This document shows, piece after piece, positions 2 through 53,957 of a stretch of DNA of 64,000 nucleotides. Origin of the DNA: Cyanidioschyzon merolae (Eukaryota). Each line of letters begins with the position of its first letter. The first letter of the stretch is position 1. The notes under the pieces were generated by a model. It was not told the origin of the DNA, did not search any database, and saw only the letters and a list, made by a program, of their open reading frames with translations. Location: NCBI GenBank assembly GCA_000091205.1, contig AP006495.2; one strand, given 5' to 3'. A program made the translations under genes and the position numbers.

Positions 2-598
2 CTAGAAGGTGGAGATTTCTTTCCCGCAGGGGATGATCTGTGTTTCATTGGGATCGGTCTTCGAAGCAACCTGGAGGCCGTGCACTACATGCTGGAACAT
101 GACCTTTTCGGAACGCGTCGCGTCGCTGTGGTGAAGGATATGCTCGATCAGAGCCAAGATCGCATGCATCTGGATTGTGTGTTCAATATCATAGGAAGGA
201 AGACCGTCCTTATGTTGGCCGACATCATCGGGTCGCAGTCACCGATCCGGCGAATGGTGGATGAGTACGCTCGTGAATCCGAACAGGATGCGTATCGCCT
301 CGTACGCAGGGATGTGGAATTCGGAGCATACGTGGAGGATCAAGGATTTGAAATTATTCCGCTGAGTTTGGCGGATCAGATGGCCTACGGCTGCAATGTG
401 CTGAACCTTGGCGCCAGTCACATTGTCTCGGTATGTTCAAGTGCAGCACGCAAAATCGTTGCGGATGATCGCTTTACAGGCAATGTAGAGTACCTGGATT
501 TTTCGCAGTGCACGGCGATGTACGGTGCAGCACACTGCGCAACGCAGATTGTTTATCGCAGTCGAGTACCACCGATCTCCTTGGATCACGAACACTGA
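2..598 (+). CDS. Arginine deiminase-like enzyme (amidinotransferase superfamily), partial: the 5' end lies beyond the window start
   Basis: The frame stays open from nt 2 through the ATG at 80, so the gene continues upstream. The translation contains 'GGDFFPAGDDLCFIGIGLRSNLEAV' (the GGD...IGxxxRS motif), 'MHLDCVF' (compare ADI 'MHLDTVF') and a C-terminal catalytic Cys in 'GAAHCATQ' (compare ADI 'GGxRCMS'). Confidence 0.6.
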   Translation, partial: LEGGDFFPAGDDLCFIGIGLRSNLEAVHYMLEHDLFGTRRVAVVKDMLDQSQDRMHLDCVFNIIGRKTVLMLADIIGSQSPIRRMVDEYARESEQDAYRLVRRDVEFGAYVEDQGFEIIPLSLADQMAYGCNVLNLGASHIVSVCSSAARKIVADDRFTGNVEYLDFSQCTAMYGAAHCATQIVYRSRVPPISLDHEH

Positions 599-1342: not shown

Positions 1343-1834
1343 TCATGAAGAATCATCGCGCGTTTCGTTTTCTGGTGAAACGGTCGGCGGCAGGGCGCCA
1401 ACGTGGCCGTACGGCACCGGTGGCCAACGCGGCGGATCGTAGCCAGAGCCTCCAAGCGGGTTACAGCGTAGGATGCGCCACATCGCCAGCAAAATACCCC
1501 GCACAACACCAAACTCTTCTAATGACTGTACAGCGTAGTCACTACAGCTTGGTACGAAACGGCAAGCAGGTCCTAGGACAGGTGAAATACAGCGCTTGTA
1601 CAGCCGCAGACCGCCTACGAGTGTTTTGCGAACGGGCGCCAAGGCATCACGTTGCCGACTCGAGAGATTCACTCGTTGCTGAAAAGGTTGTTTTGCCCTT
1701 CGGAGAGCTGCAAACCGGTTATGACGCTCTATTTGCGTCGTAGCCCCAGGTGACAAAAACATGCTTCTCGAGAACAGCATGTCCAGACTAGATTCTAGAG
1801 GGTTACGGCTTCGCGTCCTCAAGGCGCAGTGCAT
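1343..1834 (-). CDS. YidD / membrane protein insertion efficiency factor homologue (UPF0161); bacterial-type, probably organelle-targeted
   Basis: The ORF 1343..1897 contains '[44 protein letters not shown]', which matches the YidD consensus C-F-PSCS-YA...G...G..L...RI-RC-P-GYDP. The start is uncertain; I placed it at the internal Met at 1834 because the first Met overlaps the tRNA at 1890. Confidence 0.55.
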
Positions 1835-1889
1835 CACACCACCATGAACCTCTTTATATTCTGAAATTGGCGCCTCTAGGCTACTCAAC

Positions 1890-1983
1890 GGCGGCATGGG
1901 CTATGGCGTTATTGGCGCTCGCTCCGGTGGTATGCTGTGGACTTTGGGTGTCTGCGACTCGGGTTCGATTCCCGATGCTGCCC
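1890..1983 (+). tRNA. tRNA-Pro (anticodon UGG) gene carrying a roughly 22-nt insertion (putative non-canonical intron) in the D-loop
   Basis: Acceptor GGCGGCA (1890-1896) pairs with TGCTGCC (1976-1982) using one G-U pair. U8-G9 follow, then D-stem GGCT/TGCT. The D-loop is 30 nt and ends in GGTGGTA. Anticodon stem TGGAC/GTCTG flanks the loop TTTGGGT (U33, anticodon TGG, G37). T-arm is TCGGG-TTCGATT-CCCGA. The discriminator C is followed by TTTT, a Pol III terminator. Total length is 94 nt against a canonical 72-73. Confidence 0.6.
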
Positions 1984-2717
1984 TTTTGATCTACCCTTAC
2001 TTGGACCACGCATCCGTCCTTGAGCACCCCACACCCCATATGTTTTTGGTGCAAGTTTTCTCGGTTTTATTCGAATACCCCCGGGAACGCGAGCAGTTCG
2101 CGGCGTGCAAGCACACCGGGGCTTCGCGGACGCCCTACCGTTGAACCGCAAGCCTGTCGCCAGTTCCGCAGTCGCAACCCGGCGCTCTGCAGCAAGTCGG
2201 GCGCGCTTCCGCTGCCTACGCGTCACGCAAGTCGGTGTAGTCTCTCCAGGTTCAGCGACGCGAGGCCTCCGGTCAAGGATGGATGCACGTACGTACGCAC
2301 GCTCGCACGTGCGCACGAAGCGAGAGAAAGGAAACGCGTACCAGCCGCGTTCGCTCGAAAGACTGCTCCAGTGCAAGTCCCTCGTAGACCTATAACCTGA
2401 AACTGGTGCGGCAACGAACTGCGAGCGCTCTCATAAAAGGCACGTGCAAAGCATTTACCAGATACATGGAGCGGCTCAGTGTGAGCCCAGGCGTGCCAAG
2501 GAAACCCCAAACCCACTAGAATCACGATGACTTGCGCAGTTGCCGAGCAAGATTTGTGCACTCGAACTTCATCCAGACGCTCGAGTAGTGCGCTCCAGAC
2601 ACCACTGCAAGAGTGCCAATAGGCACCGATGTTTGCGTCAGCACCGCTGTGTGCTCGCCTTCGAGGCTCAGTAGCAAGCATTCGCTGGGCGCGTTGCCAG
2701 TACCGCCCTGCTTGAGT

Positions 2718-17088: not shown

Positions 17089-18625
17089 AGCGGTCCGCGT
17101 AGACACTGCTCTAAAGCGACCTCGACTATGGCAACAGCAGTACCGTCCAGCGGAAACGTGTCGATGTCTACACCCGAGTACCGATAGCCCGACGGAAAAG
17201 CACACCAGGTGTCGCTGTCGCTGCATGGTAGCGTTCGGAGAGGCGACGCGTAGGCGCGCTTCCCGCTCGCCGCAGCGTCCGATGCATCGACAATGCGTCG
17301 AGGCATACCTGATCCGTTTCAACGATTACGTACTGTAGCATCATCAACTGGGACGTTGCTTGATGTTTTCTGACATTCCGTCCACGTTTGTGGTCGTGCA
17401 TGTCATGGTGCGGGTGCTAAGGTCACGAATTGACTCCCTCGAATAGAGATCGCGTAATCTTTTGGAGTATGGAAGGCGAGGTGTGGCGACGCTGCGGACG
17501 CGAAATCCTGATTCTCTTTATCATTGTTATCATCTAGAGAGGCTCTCGGTGCGTCCAGAAATCCCTAGTGAGATCGATGGATCTCGTATCGTATGATTCG
17601 ATGGTGACACCTCGACAGGATCCTGAGTCGTTTCACAAGACTTGCCCGAAAAGGTTATCGGCGCGTCCGAAAAATGCCCATCAGACTGAGCTTGTACGAG
17701 CCAGTCAAGTGCCGAGCAAACAGAAACGAACCGGCAGCCAGCGACTCGATACCAATTTCGTTCCAGCTTCACGGTGAACATTGAACGGGGGCAAACGTCT
17801 CCGTATTTTCGAACGTTGATCCGCATGATGGAAGGTCGCACGACCCGGACGTGTCCGGCGCGCTCGTGCCTCACGCCTCCCTCAGTTACCGGGTGATGTG
17901 GCGACACCTGAGCGACTCATCTGCAACGATGTTTTTGTTTTTAGATGAGAAAGCGGTAGGCTGCATGCTAGGCGTTGCCCTGGTTGCAGTACGCTCCTAG
18001 CAGATCGCTTCGCGCTACCGCAAGCAGTGCGTCTCTCTCCGCAGCTTGCTGGCTCCCAGTATCATAAAGAGTCCCGATTCCGTATTGAATAAAAGACACT
18101 TCGAGCCAACGTCTTCTCAGTCGTATGCCAATCCCGTTCTATGCTCGTGCTGCACCCGCACCAGCTGTACAGGGTTTATTCAGGGGACAGCAAGGCAGGT
18201 ACTCGCTGCGCGATAGAACGCACGAAACGACCAGTACAACCTATATCACATATAGGTTATGGAACTTGAGCGTATGGCACAGCATGATGGACAATTCCAT
18301 GAACCCTACTATCCATTCCGTGTCTGGGTTCCGTGGTCAATGGAAACATTTCGTCAAACAAGAAAATCAGACTGATATCTCGTACAATGAAGTACCTCAG
18401 TGGCGCGCGCTGCTTCGTTTCAGACTTGGCAGGCAGGTTCTGCACACGGACGCTCATTGGCTCGATTTCGCGCCCACTGCGGACAGAAAGACTGGTGTGG
18501 ACCTTGCGGAGCGTGGAGGCGTCTTCCGGTCAACTGTCGTCTCTTGGTTGGTCTCTGTGAGCCGCTGTGCACTTAGGAGGCTCTGGTCCGACGCAACAAT
18601 CTTCAAGGGTAAAGGCCAACTACGG

Positions 18626-19459
18626 ATGCAACCGCGGCTTCCAAGGCCTGCTCGGGCCGTTTTAGACACTTTTGCCAAGTGCGACTTCGCAGACTGGCTC
18701 TGCTTGCAACAACACTGGTCTGAACAGAGCACCACCGACAGAGGGCTTGTAGTGCGCTGGCTGGTCGCCGTGGGCGTACTGCTCGCCAGCGTCTTGGTAG
18801 TGCTCTACAATAGTCGCCGGCGGCGGCGTCGACTTCCACTGGTCGTACTCTTGTCGTGTCCAAGCGCTGAAACCGTCGCGAGCGGTGCTGGGAAAACGAC
18901 ACTCTTTTGGCGGCTTTGGAAAGGGCAACTGCCACGTTACGCGCCAGTGCCGTCGCAGCAGCCGAACGAGGCAGTGGTAACGCTGGACGACGGTGTGCGC
19001 TTTCTTCTGGTCGACCTGCCGAGTGATGCACGGGCGCGGGGAACCTGGGGACGGTTCACTTCGTTGGACAAGTTGAACGCTGCCGCCGTCGTCGTCGTTT
19101 ACGTCGTGGACGCGAAAACTGACTCTTTGACCCGAGAAGCGGAATATCTCTTTAGAGATATCGACGTGCGGGCGCTCCTCCAACGTGGCACCACCTGCGT
19201 CGTTCTTGCGAACAAAGCGGACCTCCGCACAGCCATGCCAGCCAAGGTGTTTCTAGCACGATGGATGCGGGAAGTAGAACGACTGGGGCATTCGAGGACG
19301 AATTCGCTGACCCCAGTGCTGGTCGATGAGTCGACCATCGCGCAGATTCCATCGCTCCGACGAGAGCAGCGCCTTATGCTGGTTCATGGAAGTGCCAAAA
19401 CTGGCGACTGTTTACCGAAACTGTACACTGTTATCCGAAGCGCCGTGCGTCACCGCTAG
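18626..19459 (+). CDS. Signal recognition particle receptor beta subunit-like small GTPase
   Basis: An N-terminal transmembrane anchor ('LVVRWLVAVGVLLASVLVVLY') is followed by the P-loop 'SGAGKTTLFWRL' and an Arf-like GTPase core ('VVDAKTD', 'LANKADL'). The start was chosen at the Met before the TM helix; the ORF extends further upstream without a recognisable domain. Confidence 0.6.
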   Translation: MQPRLPRPARAVLDTFAKCDFADWLCLQQHWSEQSTTDRGLVVRWLVAVGVLLASVLVVLYNSRRRRRRLPLVVLLSCPSAETVASGAGKTTLFWRLWKGQLPRYAPVPSQQPNEAVVTLDDGVRFLLVDLPSDARARGTWGRFTSLDKLNAAAVVVVYVVDAKTDSLTREAEYLFRDIDVRALLQRGTTCVVLANKADLRTAMPAKVFLARWMREVERLGHSRTNSLTPVLVDESTIAQIPSLRREQRLMLVHGSAKTGDCLPKLYTVIRSAVRHR

Positions 19460-49734: not shown

Positions 49735-50030
49735 GAAGTGTAGCTCGCGATGTCGCGATGCCGCCCTGCCGAAGCGTTCGGAAGGCGGCGGGATCGCTGT
49801 GCTCGCGCATCTGCAGCCATTGGTGCAACGCGTACGCCGCGATGCACGCGCCAGGTACAGGTGTGCGCTGGCGATCGGCGCGCATCCGCTGGCGTGATCA
49901 GATTCGTCTCGAGGCTGATCGCCGCGCTGTGCCGCATCGCCGCTGGGGTATGTTGTGAAGCGCGCGCGCTCTGTACCCCGCTTATGAATGCGCGATCATA
50001 TCGCATGCTGGATCATCTTTCTTGTCGACC

Positions 50031-50779
50031 AATAGCCAGGAAAAACTGTACATGGTGAATTGATGTGGTGCTCGGGTCTTGCAGTATTGCTGAACCGTTC
50101 TGTATCAGCGAGTGAGCAGAGGCGGGAATCCGATTCTCCCTCTTGAACAGTGATGTTTCTCCATTGCATATAGGTTCCGTTTCCAGCACCAGGGCCTCAC
50201 TGGGTGCCAGAGGATTCCCTCAGAACTTCGCTCGACACCAAGCCGGTGGACGCGATGGCAACAAGCGTCCGTCCCGGATGTTCAGCGAGGCGATCATTCG
50301 TAGGTGCAGAGTGTCCTTGCGCGCATTCTTGCCGGGGGAATCATGCTACAGCATGCCTCCGATCTTCGATAGCTCCGCAATCTGAAATTTGATCAGCTTG
50401 CTGTTCGCCATCTCGTGAATCTGGCTCTGTCTCATGCTCTTCTTCTGTATTCGTTTCACTGTGCACCGGTCCTGGCGATGCACGTACATCGTCCTGAACG
50501 CATCTATGGGAATCGTGCAGCATCGATTCCTGCACTTGCTTGGTGCTGTCGCTGAGGGCACAGGATTAGACTCTTGGGGTGGTACACAGCCGCCGTAGAC
50601 ATAGGCTACCACAACGCGACGAGAGTAATCGGTCATTTCCTTGCTGGGAGCCCCCAGAGGGCTTTGGTGAAAGCACGCATCTTGCCTCTGTAGAACCGGA
50701 GCCCGTCAGGGGCGTCAGTGCAGTCGCATGTGCTGCTCATACAGGTCCTTCGCATGAGCCATGTGGACGCCTTCGTACT
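50031..50779. repeat. Dispersed repeat, copy B (direct repeat of 35756..36504)
   Basis: See copy A. The offset is 14275 bp. This copy lies in the 5' flank of the peroxidase gene. Confidence 0.9.
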
Positions 50780-53364
50780 ACATGGAGCTTACATCATGTC
50801 CCGCCAGTTCCATTCTTCTGTGTCAGAATTGCTAGGGCACGACGGGTACGATCCAAAGAGGGTGCGTCCCAGGAAGCGCTCGGCATTGACCCGCGGGAGG
50901 TATTTGAGGTTGTTTTCAATTTATCATTGACGCTCGCGGCTTACATTTGGTGATCGCTGACGTTGCTCGGCGTTGTGCCAAACTATACAGGGAAGCCTGT
51001 ATAAAGATTTCGGATCAAAAGATCAGTCCGTCAGACGTCTTCTATCCCGATCATCTGTTGTCCTGCGTTGCGAAGGTGAGATCGAAAGATATCCAGAGAA
51101 ATATGGATAGATGGCAGCGCTGCGTCCGGATTTCATGCGATCAGTTGCTTGACGATGTGGGCCAAAGCGAGAGAAGCAGGCGAGCGTTCCTCAAATGAGA
51201 AGCCACGCGATCTTTCCTAGCGTCCATCAGCTCGCGTAAGAAAGGTGAACCCGCAGATGCGTTTTCGTAGGGAGGCCATGCCAACGGTTTCAGGTTGATC
51301 TCTCAGCCCCGATAGGTTTTCTTTCTGGTTCCTCGTCGTCCTGCGTTCTGTACAAAGTTGCTGCTTTTGCCCCATGAGTCCTGCACCTTCTACTTCTCCG
51401 CGTTCGCCCATACTTGGTGGAGAATCATGAACGTATACCCATACTCCATAACCGTTCGTTTTTCTTGGGATTCTGATGCGCCGTAAGGGCGGAATCATTG
51501 AAGCGCCACTGCTCTATTGATGTATTTACGGTCCCGTAACTACTTTTTCGTGATCCCCGTTCCGACCGTGTCCATAAACCGCAGCGCGCTTGTCCTCTGC
51601 CTCGCGCATACGACGAGCAACACTGCAGATCCGGGCTGGTCAGGGCAGGGAACAACTCGACCAAGAAGGATGCCATGGATGTGTTCGAGTCGTCCGTTGA
51701 TCCGTAAGCGTCGAAACGGTCTCTGACAACAGAGAAGACGCCTGCGACTCGATTCAACCCAGGAGCATACACTGGCACCGAGAGCACTTCAACTCGAACC
51801 GCAACTGCATGCACCGTTCCCGCTTGTGTGAGTGATAGAAAGCGGCGTTATGTAAGAGCAGGCGAGAGGCGTATGGAAGGAAAAGTCCTGAAGTGCTTCG
51901 ACGAAGCGTGAGGTGATGAACGATCTTACCCGATTGGCGATTTGGCGGCAACTATACGATAGCTACGACGCTATGACTGTTTTTTTAGTTACGGTCGCTC
52001 GTTTCACCTCTGCAAACAGCGGTTTGTTCCTTGTTGAGAACACGTGCACAAGTCTGCGATTTCCCTGGGACGAGGTCCCTTCGAGTGAGACGGAGAACCG
52101 TCTCAGATATAGGAAGCATTCGCGTTTCTGTACGAAATCGATGGCGTGCTTTTCAGCACGGGACCGTCCCGTACGGAAGCACGCTCTTTCATCATGTCCA
52201 TGTGTTTCTCTCGATAAGCATTGGTATCAGCGGTGTGGAAACTCCACACGCTTTGGCTTCTTTGGAAGAAGTTCGTTGAGAATGTTTGGAGTGAATTGGG
52301 TTGACGAGGAGACAGGCGCGAAAATAGAGTTTCATAGGTTCTGTGTTTTGGGTACACGACGCGTAGGATAGAGGACTACCAGGAAGGTGGTTCCTCCACC
52401 TGCTCATCGTTCAATGAAAGACTCGCACATGTAAGACCTTTTTTCGCAATCTAGCAGTCGCAGCATCAATTAGCTCCAAGACCTTCCTCCGATCTACACG
52501 ATGCATTGTTTTTGTGAAACATGCTCGGGTGATACAGAAACATACACAAAATGGACGTCATTGTATATGCGTCCCCGAAGGCACTGCTCGATTCGGAGCA
52601 TACCAGAAGCGTGTCGTTCTACCAGAATCGACTCGGCCATATGGAGGTTTCCTCTGAACACTCCATATATTACAGCATTGGCCTTGGATCAATACAGTCG
52701 ATGCTGCGGCTAGCGCGCATACACGCTGCAACCTTCGCTCGCGAACAGCGTTGCGACCGATCCACCGTCGGTATCATCGCATGCACGCAAACCGATTGGC
52801 TTTGAATGGAATACACTACGAGAGACTGAACTGACTCGCCTGGATGTGCAAACGCTTCTGGTTAGCGGCGCTCCGACTTGCCCAGGAATGTGTGGTCTTA
52901 TCGAAACTTTGTCGCCTGAGAGCACTGCAGGACCCGGAGAAAGCGCTTCAATCGATTCAATTTTTTATTCATTGACAGAACGTTTCCTTAGGCCAGCGTT
53001 CTCCGATTATGCGCATTTTTCTTCTCTTACTTTTTTTGTGTTTTTTCAGTGCGAGGTGTGGTATCCATCAGCTCCCTACCTCCATGTTACATTACCTATA
53101 CTTCTTCTCGGATATTCTGGTCGTTTCATACGTCCTATCGAGTGTGTGCCTAGTGCCTGCCGAAAGCGACCGCACCGGCGCCTAAAGCGCCGGTGCGTCA
53201 ATCGATGCAATACTGGCATTCGCGCCCTGGCCCCGATCGATGACCCGAAGATCCGCCGCCCGCGACATCCGGACGCACCCGCTATCGGTGCGCGCATGCA
53301 TCATCGGCGCATATCGAGACGTGAACCCTATATATATCAATTCTAGTGCCTAACTGAACGAAAC

Positions 53365-53465
53365 GGGGTGCTGGTCTATCGTTACAGGGGATCTGGTGGT
53401 ATGATTTGCCGTTAGGGAATTCTCCAACATCGGCAAGGTCCCGGGTTCAATTCCCGGGCACCCCC
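53365..53465 (+). tRNA. tRNA-Pro (anticodon AGG) gene with two insertions: about 17 nt in the D-loop and a canonical 12-nt intron between positions 37 and 38
   Basis: Acceptor GGGGTGC (53365-71) pairs perfectly with GCACCCC (53458-64). U8-G9 follow, then D-stem GTCT/TGAT. The D-loop is 24 nt and ends in GGTGGTA. Anticodon stem TGCCG/CGGCA flanks the loop TT-AGG-G, then the intron AATTCTCCAACA, then T38. Variable loop is AGGTC. T-arm is CCGGG-TTCAATT-CCCGG. The discriminator C is followed by A then TTTTT, a Pol III terminator. Apart from the insertions it is strongly similar to metazoan tRNA-Pro. Confidence 0.6.
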
Positions 53466-53957
53466 ATTTTTGCCCGTCTTGAACAAGTCGGTCTTAATAT
53501 CGATACGCGACCTCCTTGAGCTTGTCCCGAAGCGTGCGTCTGAGAACCGTGCTTCTGCTGCTGCACGAGTGCTGCGCACAACGGAGCTGTGCATCTGGGC
53601 TGCTGCTGTGCGCGTGCATCGCTCCTGAAAAGCTGCTTGACTGGGCGCCTTGAACAGGCGACTCTAGACTCGCGGGTCAGCGCGAAGCCGGAGGACCAAG
53701 GAATCTGGTGCGGGACGCGCCGCTGCTGGAAAGCGACGCTGCAGTCCTGCGCCGAACGCGTGCGGAACACTGGTCGTTGTTCACGTGGTCGTCCCGTCGC
53801 GAGGAGCGCGCGCTGAAGTTTGATTTGACGCCACCGCACGGCAAACGCCGTTTCGGCTCGACCTAGCTTAGATCGTAGACGGGGCAGCGCCGGCATTGAG
53901 CCCCCGGAACTGACGCAAGGTGCAAAGAACCGAGTCGTCCGAGTTGACGTCAGTCCA

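Follow-up and report, generated by a model that had tools for sequence, protein, structure and literature searches.

A 64-kb stretch of Cyanidioschyzon merolae 10D DNA (contig AP006495.2, 64,000 nucleotides, hereafter the window) carries at 53365..53465 (+) a 101-nt tRNA-Pro(AGG) gene in three exons of 14, 22, and 36 nt, interrupted once in the D-loop and once at the canonical position 37/38 of the anticodon loop. With a probability that we put at about 0.9, this is a functional nuclear tRNA gene and one of the disrupted tRNA genes of this strain whose introns are removed through bulge-helix-bulge (BHB) motifs. A previous inspection of the letters alone (the sequence-only reading) had proposed BHB-dependent splicing of the type known from C. 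merolae. Our analysis supports that proposal, with motifs that turned out to be relaxed; thermodynamics alone makes a weak case for BHB recognition, and it is the comparative evidence that carries it.

Structure of the gene and its spliced product

The acceptor stem (GGGGTGC/GCACCCC), the D-stem (GTCT/TGAT), the anticodon arm (TGCCG-TTAGGG...T-CGGCA), the T-arm (CCGGG-TTCAATT-CCCGG), and the discriminator C (53465) can all be read from the sequence, as the sequence-only reading had recognized, together with the variable loop and a downstream T run. The canonical 12-nt intron that it had placed at 37/38 was likewise recovered: AATTCTCCAACA occupies 53418-53429, straight after position 37. The anticodon loop UUAGGGU is assembled from 53412-53417 plus 53430 and holds AGG at positions 34-36, between U33 and G37. 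With both segments excised, the product (GGGGTGCTGGTCTAGTGGTATGATTTGCCGTTAGGGTCGGCAAGGTCCCGGGTTCAATTCCCGGGCACCCCC) is 72 nt long, folds into a clean full cloverleaf, and was called tRNA-Pro(AGG) by ARAGORN. It has a 7-bp acceptor stem, a D-arm with A14, G18, G19, and A21, a 5-bp anticodon stem with a 7-nt loop, and a T-loop of the GTTCRANYC type.

Two copies of the T-loop consensus GGTTCRANTCC are present in the window, versus 0.18 expected, and both lie within interrupted tRNA-Pro genes, the second of which is the companion gene tRNA-Pro(UGG). Another T-arm-like hairpin (CGATG GTCGACT CATCG), at 19324..19340 (-) inside an open reading frame (ORF, 18125-19459) for a homologue of signal recognition particle receptor beta, is probably due to chance, as neither acceptor nor terminator context is evident there.

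The spliced Pro(AGG) product matched an uninterrupted metagenomic tRNA-Pro gene (L013) at 65 of 72 positions and two others (L011 and L022) at 57 of 72 each. Similarity to metazoan tRNA-Pro, described as close in the sequence-only reading, proved only moderate, with 54/72 identities to a human tRNA-Pro(AGG) sequence, versus the 65/72 to L013. The latter tRNA, at ca. 96-167 (+) of contig Ga0182743_1079447, is itself a Pro(AGG), with an anticodon arm and a T-arm nearly identical to those of C. merolae. The G+C content is 48 to 53%, and the 1.25-kb contig holds no recognizable gene. It might represent an intron-free ortholog from another alga.

Exon conservation and intron divergence

Scanning metagenomes with a T-arm 22-mer returned 45 loci, among which there were four orthologs of the Pro(AGG) gene. 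The corresponding contigs (L016, L028, L037, and L041) each shared at least 98-99% identity with the window and for that reason provided no covariation. Exons 1, 2, and 3 were identical in every ortholog, and the only difference inside the gene among close contigs was a C>T change at 53385, in the loop of intron 1 (L028; also L050 and L051).

The gene was also compared with a divergent syntenic lineage (L046, L047, and L049, plus L068 from NCBI assembly GCA_041825655.1), in which the gene order is peroxidase - tRNA - Tfb2. Coding DNA identity to the window was 72 to 81%, and the intergenic DNA could not be aligned except for a single block, 53328-53471, which spans exactly the distance from the TATA box to the terminator. 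Within it, all exon positions were identical (72/72), while both introns had changed in length and sequence: intron 1 of the relative is CCGCGTCTCTGCGGATCTG (19 nt versus 17 nt here), and intron 2 is AAACTCCAACA (11 nt versus 12 nt here). Altogether, the introns differed at 9 of 31 aligned columns and the exons at 0 of 72 (Fisher p = 8e-6); 7 of the 19 aligned columns of intron 1 had changed. What the introns retained was their 3' ends, GGATCTG in intron 1 and CTCCAACA in intron 2, which comprise the intron strand of the helix together with the bases next to the 3' cut. Thus, the exons are under strong purifying selection, and the introns drift except for the central-helix strand and the bases at the 3' cut.

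Boundary of the D-loop intron

The best-supported location of intron 1 is 53379-53395 (17 nt), on which two criteria agree, namely, the D-arm of uninterrupted homologues and the BHB register. The D-arm GGTCTAGTGGTATGAT, present in six uninterrupted metagenomic tRNA-Pro genes (L013, L011, L014, L022, L025, and L033), is reproduced only by a 17-nt excision, which leaves the D-loop AGTGGTA. At the BHB register, the 17-nt version forms four of the four pairs of the central helix versus three of four for a 16-nt version; shuffled versions of intron 1 reached 4/4 in 4.8% of trials. ARAGORN kept the Pro(AGG) call in 160 of 203 trial excisions in the D region (with 53418-53429 also removed), which shows how robust the anticodon is and is also why this program is unable to fix the D-loop boundary. 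The search for BHB geometry was informative only when limited to excisions that leave a legal D-loop, since an unconstrained search of the precursor returned many chance 4/4 helices that destroy the tRNA. The sequence-only reading had given about 17 nt for the insertion, which holds, and a leftover loop 'A...GGTGGTA', which does not: that loop implies 16 nt, and the two statements differ by one base.

A 16-nt intron 1 (53379-53394) in the same gene, leaving the 8-nt D-loop AGGUGGUA, appears to us improbable. Such a loop, with A14, G18, G19, and A21, belongs to a legal tRNA that ARAGORN accepts, and the relaxed motifs of C. merolae need not follow the strict 3-nt bulge rule (PMC3728597). Apart from the pair lost from the central helix at that register, however, all of the uninterrupted tRNA-Pro genes recovered have GGTCTAGTGGTATGAT, in which one G alone precedes TGG, and the Pro(UGG) paralog yields the same AGUGGUA loop at a 4/4 register of its own.

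Bulge-helix-bulge motifs at the two junctions

Anticodon-loop introns have an established pair between the anticodon loop and the intron, and their 3' splice site lies in a 3-nt bulge. From these features we rebuilt the cut rule used here, under which cleavage falls two bulge bases beyond the 3' end of either strand of a 4-bp helix. The rule is internally validated by the canonical intron of this gene because, applied to it, the outer helix coincides exactly with the anticodon stem (31:39 onward), and U32 pairs with the intron base at -3 (U32:A).

Applied to the 17-nt intron 1, the same rule gives a 4/4 central helix between 53373-53376 and 53390-53393 (G:C, G:U, U:A, and C:G), with the 5' bulge UA/U (the slash marks the cut) and the 3' cut after UG. 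At intron 2, the motif consists of the anticodon stem as the outer helix (G31:C39 onward), the 3-nt bulge CA/U, and the U32:A(-3) pair. The sequence-only reading had expected BHB motifs at both junctions; the 4-bp helix in register, with cuts two bases 3' of its strands, was indeed found, and the strict motif was not. More precisely, neither intron forms the archaeal-type hBHBh' structure (two 3-nt bulges, a 4-bp helix, and flanking helices of at least 2 bp). Intron 2 has the canonical eukaryotic 37/38 features, i.e., the location, the 32:(-3) pair, and a bulge that adjoins the anticodon stem and contains the 3' splice site. Both introns show what characterizes the disrupted genes of C. merolae, a BHB or a relaxed motif (hBH or HBh') at the junctions; both are of the relaxed type, with marginal energies.

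Two comparisons bear on intron 1. The 5' part of the intron, which has diverged in the syntenic relative, forms there a 4-bp inner helix (C:G, G:C, C:G, and G:U) in strict BHB register, with an energy of -5.2 kcal/mol. In the companion Pro(UGG) gene, the central helix is also 4/4 in the same register, and pair 11 is G:C instead of the U:A of Pro(AGG), with both sides changed; shuffles of the Pro(UGG) intron reached 4/4 in 8.0% of trials.

Several results weigh against the BHB interpretation or limit its reach. The intron 1 motif has no outer helix (U8 faces a U, and each of the five distinct sequences had zero outer pairs), and in this strain a single inner pair falls in the strict register. 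Its energy is -0.2 kcal/mol, versus -3.7 kcal/mol for the local minimum-energy fold. At intron 2, the central helix is 3/4, with an A34.C mismatch; the inner helix is absent here (zero or one inner pair among the sequences), and the intron and the anticodon pair with each other in the local minimum-energy fold (G36 G37 A with UCC). The fold of the whole precursor is no better than those of shuffles (z = -1.34), and its minimum-energy structure favors another pairing of the D region in which the BHB does not appear. The shared register of the two tRNA-Pro genes is not fully independent evidence because they are paralogs, and the compensatory change between them amounts to a single pair, which nevertheless seems informative. 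To this must be added that transcription and the exact splice junctions of Pro(AGG) are what we infer from sequence, and that its membership in the published C. merolae catalogue is presumed: the gene lists are in figures and supplements (PMC3728597), and no searchable text named Pro(AGG) together with merolae.

The marginal energy of the intron 1 motif in this strain would also suit a tRNA in which only the 37/38 intron is spliced and the D-loop segment stays as an oversized D-loop. We consider this very unlikely. The segment differs from that of the relative in length and at more than a third of its columns, while the 72 exon positions are identical, and because it diverges while the exons stay the same, it shows the pattern of discarded sequence. 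Moreover, its conserved part pairs with G9-C12 and would compete with the D-stem. Northern blots and reverse transcription-PCR (RT-PCR) in C. merolae showed, for the other genes tested, tRNAs of mature size from which the ectopic introns had gone (PMC3728597).

Putative promoter and terminator, and flanking DNA

The gene has the published layout of C. merolae tRNA genes, a TATA-like element upstream, a T stretch downstream, and no terminator between exons, the longest T run inside it being 3. The T5 run at 53467-53471 is probably the RNA polymerase III terminator; the relative has T7 at the same place. By analogy with that layout, the TATA-like block upstream would act as the promoter. The divergent relative has the same 15 nt (CTATATATATCAATT), which would fit a conserved upstream promoter element reaching beyond the TATA core. 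The spacing from this block to the first tRNA base is 37 nt here and 40 nt in the relative (L047, minus strand). The sequence-only reading had pointed out that the D-loop insertion disrupts the A-box. The A-box is indeed split, which is probably immaterial given an upstream TATA-like promoter and the report of no TFIIIC homologues in C. merolae.

A split A-box and the failure of standard tRNA finders and Rfam to detect the gene would fit a decaying pseudogene, or a chance tRNA-like sequence, that is not expressed. We consider this explanation highly improbable. The joined exons form a perfect cloverleaf and are unchanged across a lineage with 72 to 81% coding identity, the conserved block runs exactly from promoter to terminator, and the TATA-like box and T run fit the published C. 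merolae layout. A spare Pro(AGG) copy is also unlikely because the repertoire is minimal, with only 43 nuclear tRNA genes (PMC3728597).

In the near-identical contigs, substitutions cluster in the 5' leader of the gene, at 53350-53358, with three to four changes in 40 nt versus ca. 1% in the surrounding 800 nt; the leader of Pro(UGG) (ca. 1870-1889) shows the same clustering. The interval between the peroxidase and Tfb2 genes measures ca. 4.2 kb here (49735..53957) versus ca. 1.8 kb in the relative (L047, 8215..10000), an extra 2.4 kb. Small ORFs of this interval (e.g., 51913-52371, 52846-53346, and 53447-53896 on the minus strand) had no Pfam match.

Performance of standard tRNA finders

Neither ARAGORN with default settings nor Rfam at gathering thresholds detected a tRNA in any part of the 64-kb window. 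When Rfam was run permissively on 53250-53600, no tRNA match came near threshold; the matches reported were tRNA-Sec (13.3 bits, versus a cutoff of 47) and mascRNA (18.1 bits), both below threshold and built on the T-arm and the acceptor. ARAGORN in intron mode parses the gene wrongly because a single anticodon-loop intron is all that it allows. On the raw sequence it returned a tRNA-Trp(CCA) with one 24-nt intron, a model that we regard as practically untenable, given that it ignores the TGCCG/CGGCA arm with its TTAGGG loop, is hard to square with invariant exon blocks beside diverged introns, and comes from a mode that also placed a 483-nt intron over Pro(UGG). The latter call, a tRNA-Thr at 1413..1983, was rejected as absurd. 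Thus, the standard tools miss every tRNA of the window, including a doubly interrupted one that is recognizable by eye.

The companion tRNA-Pro(UGG) gene

The second tRNA-Pro gene of the window (Table 1), which served as an internal control, has no 37/38 intron, and its 71-nt spliced product is a clean cloverleaf. Its D-loop intron was kept in eleven other assemblies, and one polymorphism (G>T) affects position 11 of this intron. Among the 12 assemblies of this locus, a single one (L056, JGI Ga0506608_002020) has an intron-less junction: at the end of the contig (ca. 4285-4288, minus strand), the sequence starts, in tRNA orientation, with GCTA followed directly by GTGGTATGCT, corresponding to the exon 1/exon 2 junction without the 23-nt intron. 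The flank of this contig is ca. 99% identical to the window, just four bases precede the junction, and the intron-containing genes have TCCG in their place. This junction could be an intron-less allele (intron loss), a captured spliced RNA, or a contig-end artifact.

Table 1. Positions of the features of the two tRNA-Pro genes in the window
Feature	Position	Strand	Description
tRNA-Pro(AGG) upstream block	53328..53342	+	TATA-like block, putative promoter, CTATATATATCAATT, 15 nt
TATA-like core	53329-53336	+	TATATATA, -36..-29 from first tRNA base
Exon 1	53365-53378	+	tRNA positions 1-14: acceptor 5' strand, U8, G9, D-stem 5' strand GUCU, A14
Central helix of intron 1, exon strand	53373..53376	+	G9 G10 U11 C12, overlaps D-stem 5' strand
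Intron 1	53379-53395	+	17 nt, TCGTTACAGGGGATCTG, D-loop, between positions 14 and 15 (A14/G15)
Central helix of intron 1, intron strand	53390..53393	+	GAUC, followed by bulge bases UG and the 3' cut
Exon 2	53396-53417	+	tRNA positions 15-37: remaining D-loop GUGGUA, D-stem 3' strand, anticodon stem 5' strand, loop through G37
Anticodon AGG (proline)	53414-53416	+	ARAGORN on spliced sequence
Intron 2	53418-53429	+	12 nt, AATTCTCCAACA, canonical 37/38, immediately 3' of position 37
Exon 3	53430-53465	+	tRNA positions 38-73: anticodon stem 3' strand, variable loop AGGUC, T-arm, acceptor 3' strand, discriminator C
T5 run	53467-53471	+	One A between gene end and run
tRNA-Pro(UGG) upstream element	1853-1860	+	TTTATATT
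tRNA-Pro(UGG)	1890..1983	+	94 nt, found through T-loop
tRNA-Pro(UGG) intron	1904-1926	+	23 nt, D-loop, same 14/15 position
tRNA-Pro(UGG) anticodon	1945..1947	+	
tRNA-Pro(UGG) T4 run	1984-1987	+	

Comparison with known systems

The window has a G+C content of ca. 55% and long uninterrupted ORFs. All six ATG-initiated ORFs had exact matches in the protein collection; five are C. merolae 10D proteins (BAM81001, BAM81007, BAM81010, BAM81011, and BAM81015), encoded on an 866,983-bp contig, and the sixth falls in the cluster of BAM81006. The sequence-only reading had named C. merolae as the best-known case of ectopic tRNA introns and had treated the gene as new only if it came from another lineage; since the window is C. 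merolae 10D, the feature is of an already known kind, in the organism in which it was described. Our analysis adds comparative data to this known class, and the comparison across lineages and the compensatory pair may be new, unpublished material.

The relevant catalogue is that of Soma et al. 2013, Sci Rep 3:2321 (PMC3728597), produced with the same strain; later reviews give the same account. Out of 43 nuclear tRNA genes, 27 have introns, for a total of 42 introns of 11 to 69 nt, located at 37/38 (17), in the D-loop (14), the D-stem (5), the variable arm (1), the T-stem (1), and the T-loop (4); nine genes have two introns and three genes have three. The authors consider the anticodons covered by their set to be sufficient. 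The junctions form strict or relaxed BHB motifs, and most tRNA genes are flanked by a TATA-like upstream element and a T stretch, with no TFIIIC homologues reported in this alga. For tRNA-Phe, tRNA-Ile, and tRNA-Gly, RT-PCR showed that the ectopic introns leave before the 37/38 intron. Homologues of the endonuclease subunits Sen2, Sen34, and Sen54 are described, and Sen15 is given as not identified. The Pro(AGG) gene resembles this set in the strain, in the use of the D-loop (the commonest ectopic site, 14/42), in having two introns, whose 17 and 12 nt are within the range of 11 to 69 nt, and in the relaxed BHB motifs, TATA-like element, and T stretch; nothing in the searchable text sets it apart in kind.

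With archaeal introns of the strict hBHBh' type (Crenarchaeota and Nanoarchaeota, with a broad-specificity EndA), the gene shares the 4-bp helix, the cuts two bases 3' of its strands, the independence from position in the cloverleaf, and the possibility of several introns per gene. Unlike them, its motifs are relaxed: the outer helix is missing at intron 1, and at intron 2 the inner helix is missing and the central helix contains a mismatch. Unlike EndA, the enzyme belongs to a eukaryotic host and is built from Sen2, Sen34, and Sen54 homologues, no Sen15 having been identified (PMC3728597). Intron 2 resembles the canonical 37/38 introns cut by the yeast and human tRNA splicing endonuclease (TSEN) through a ruler mechanism in its site, its 32:(-3) U:A pair, and the 3-nt bulge that holds its 3' splice site. 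Intron 1 departs from TSEN ruler substrates: its central helix draws on the D-stem 5' strand, and the mature fold would be absent at the time of cutting. By published description, there are further likenesses to the Guillardia theta nucleomorph and Chondrus crispus, red-algal-derived systems with tRNA introns outside 37/38 and multi-intron genes (PMC4090602 and PMC13578239).

The 14/15 D-loop intron is common to both tRNA-Pro genes and to the cyanidialean relative. A tentative interpretation, to which we would give somewhat less than even odds, is that the ectopic tRNA introns of Cyanidiales are old, vertically inherited, and selected for recognition by the endonuclease rather than being recent insertions.

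Proposed processing and its significance

In the pathway that we propose from the published system, RNA polymerase III would transcribe one linear precursor, from the TATA-like element to the T run, independently of the split A-box. The cmSen2/cmSen34/cmSen54 endonuclease would then excise each intron by cuts placed two bases 3' of the two strands of the 4-bp helix. For intron 1, the helix would be formed by G9-C12 and the intron bases GAUC. Given that G10-C12 also make up the D-stem 5' strand, this recognition helix and the D-stem are mutually exclusive; therefore, a folded mature domain could not serve the enzyme as the reference for locating intron 1, the D-stem would be unfolded at cutting, and the D-arm would fold only after ligation. 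A tRNA ligase would join the exons, and the D-loop intron would probably be removed before the anticodon-loop intron, by analogy with other C. merolae tRNAs. End trimming, CCA addition, and A34-to-inosine editing, the last a general eukaryotic step, would finish the tRNA.

So understood, the gene would be one more instance of the phenomenon described in 2013, in which a eukaryotic tRNA splicing endonuclease recognizes a local BHB-like structure wherever it lies in the cloverleaf. The C. merolae genome would tolerate a split A-box because its tRNA genes are transcribed from upstream TATA-like promoters. The added value of the comparative data is modest: they identify the intron bases under constraint as those of the helix strand and of the 3' cut site. 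In vitro studies of substrate choice by the three-subunit enzyme of C. merolae could draw on the natural variants of these introns.

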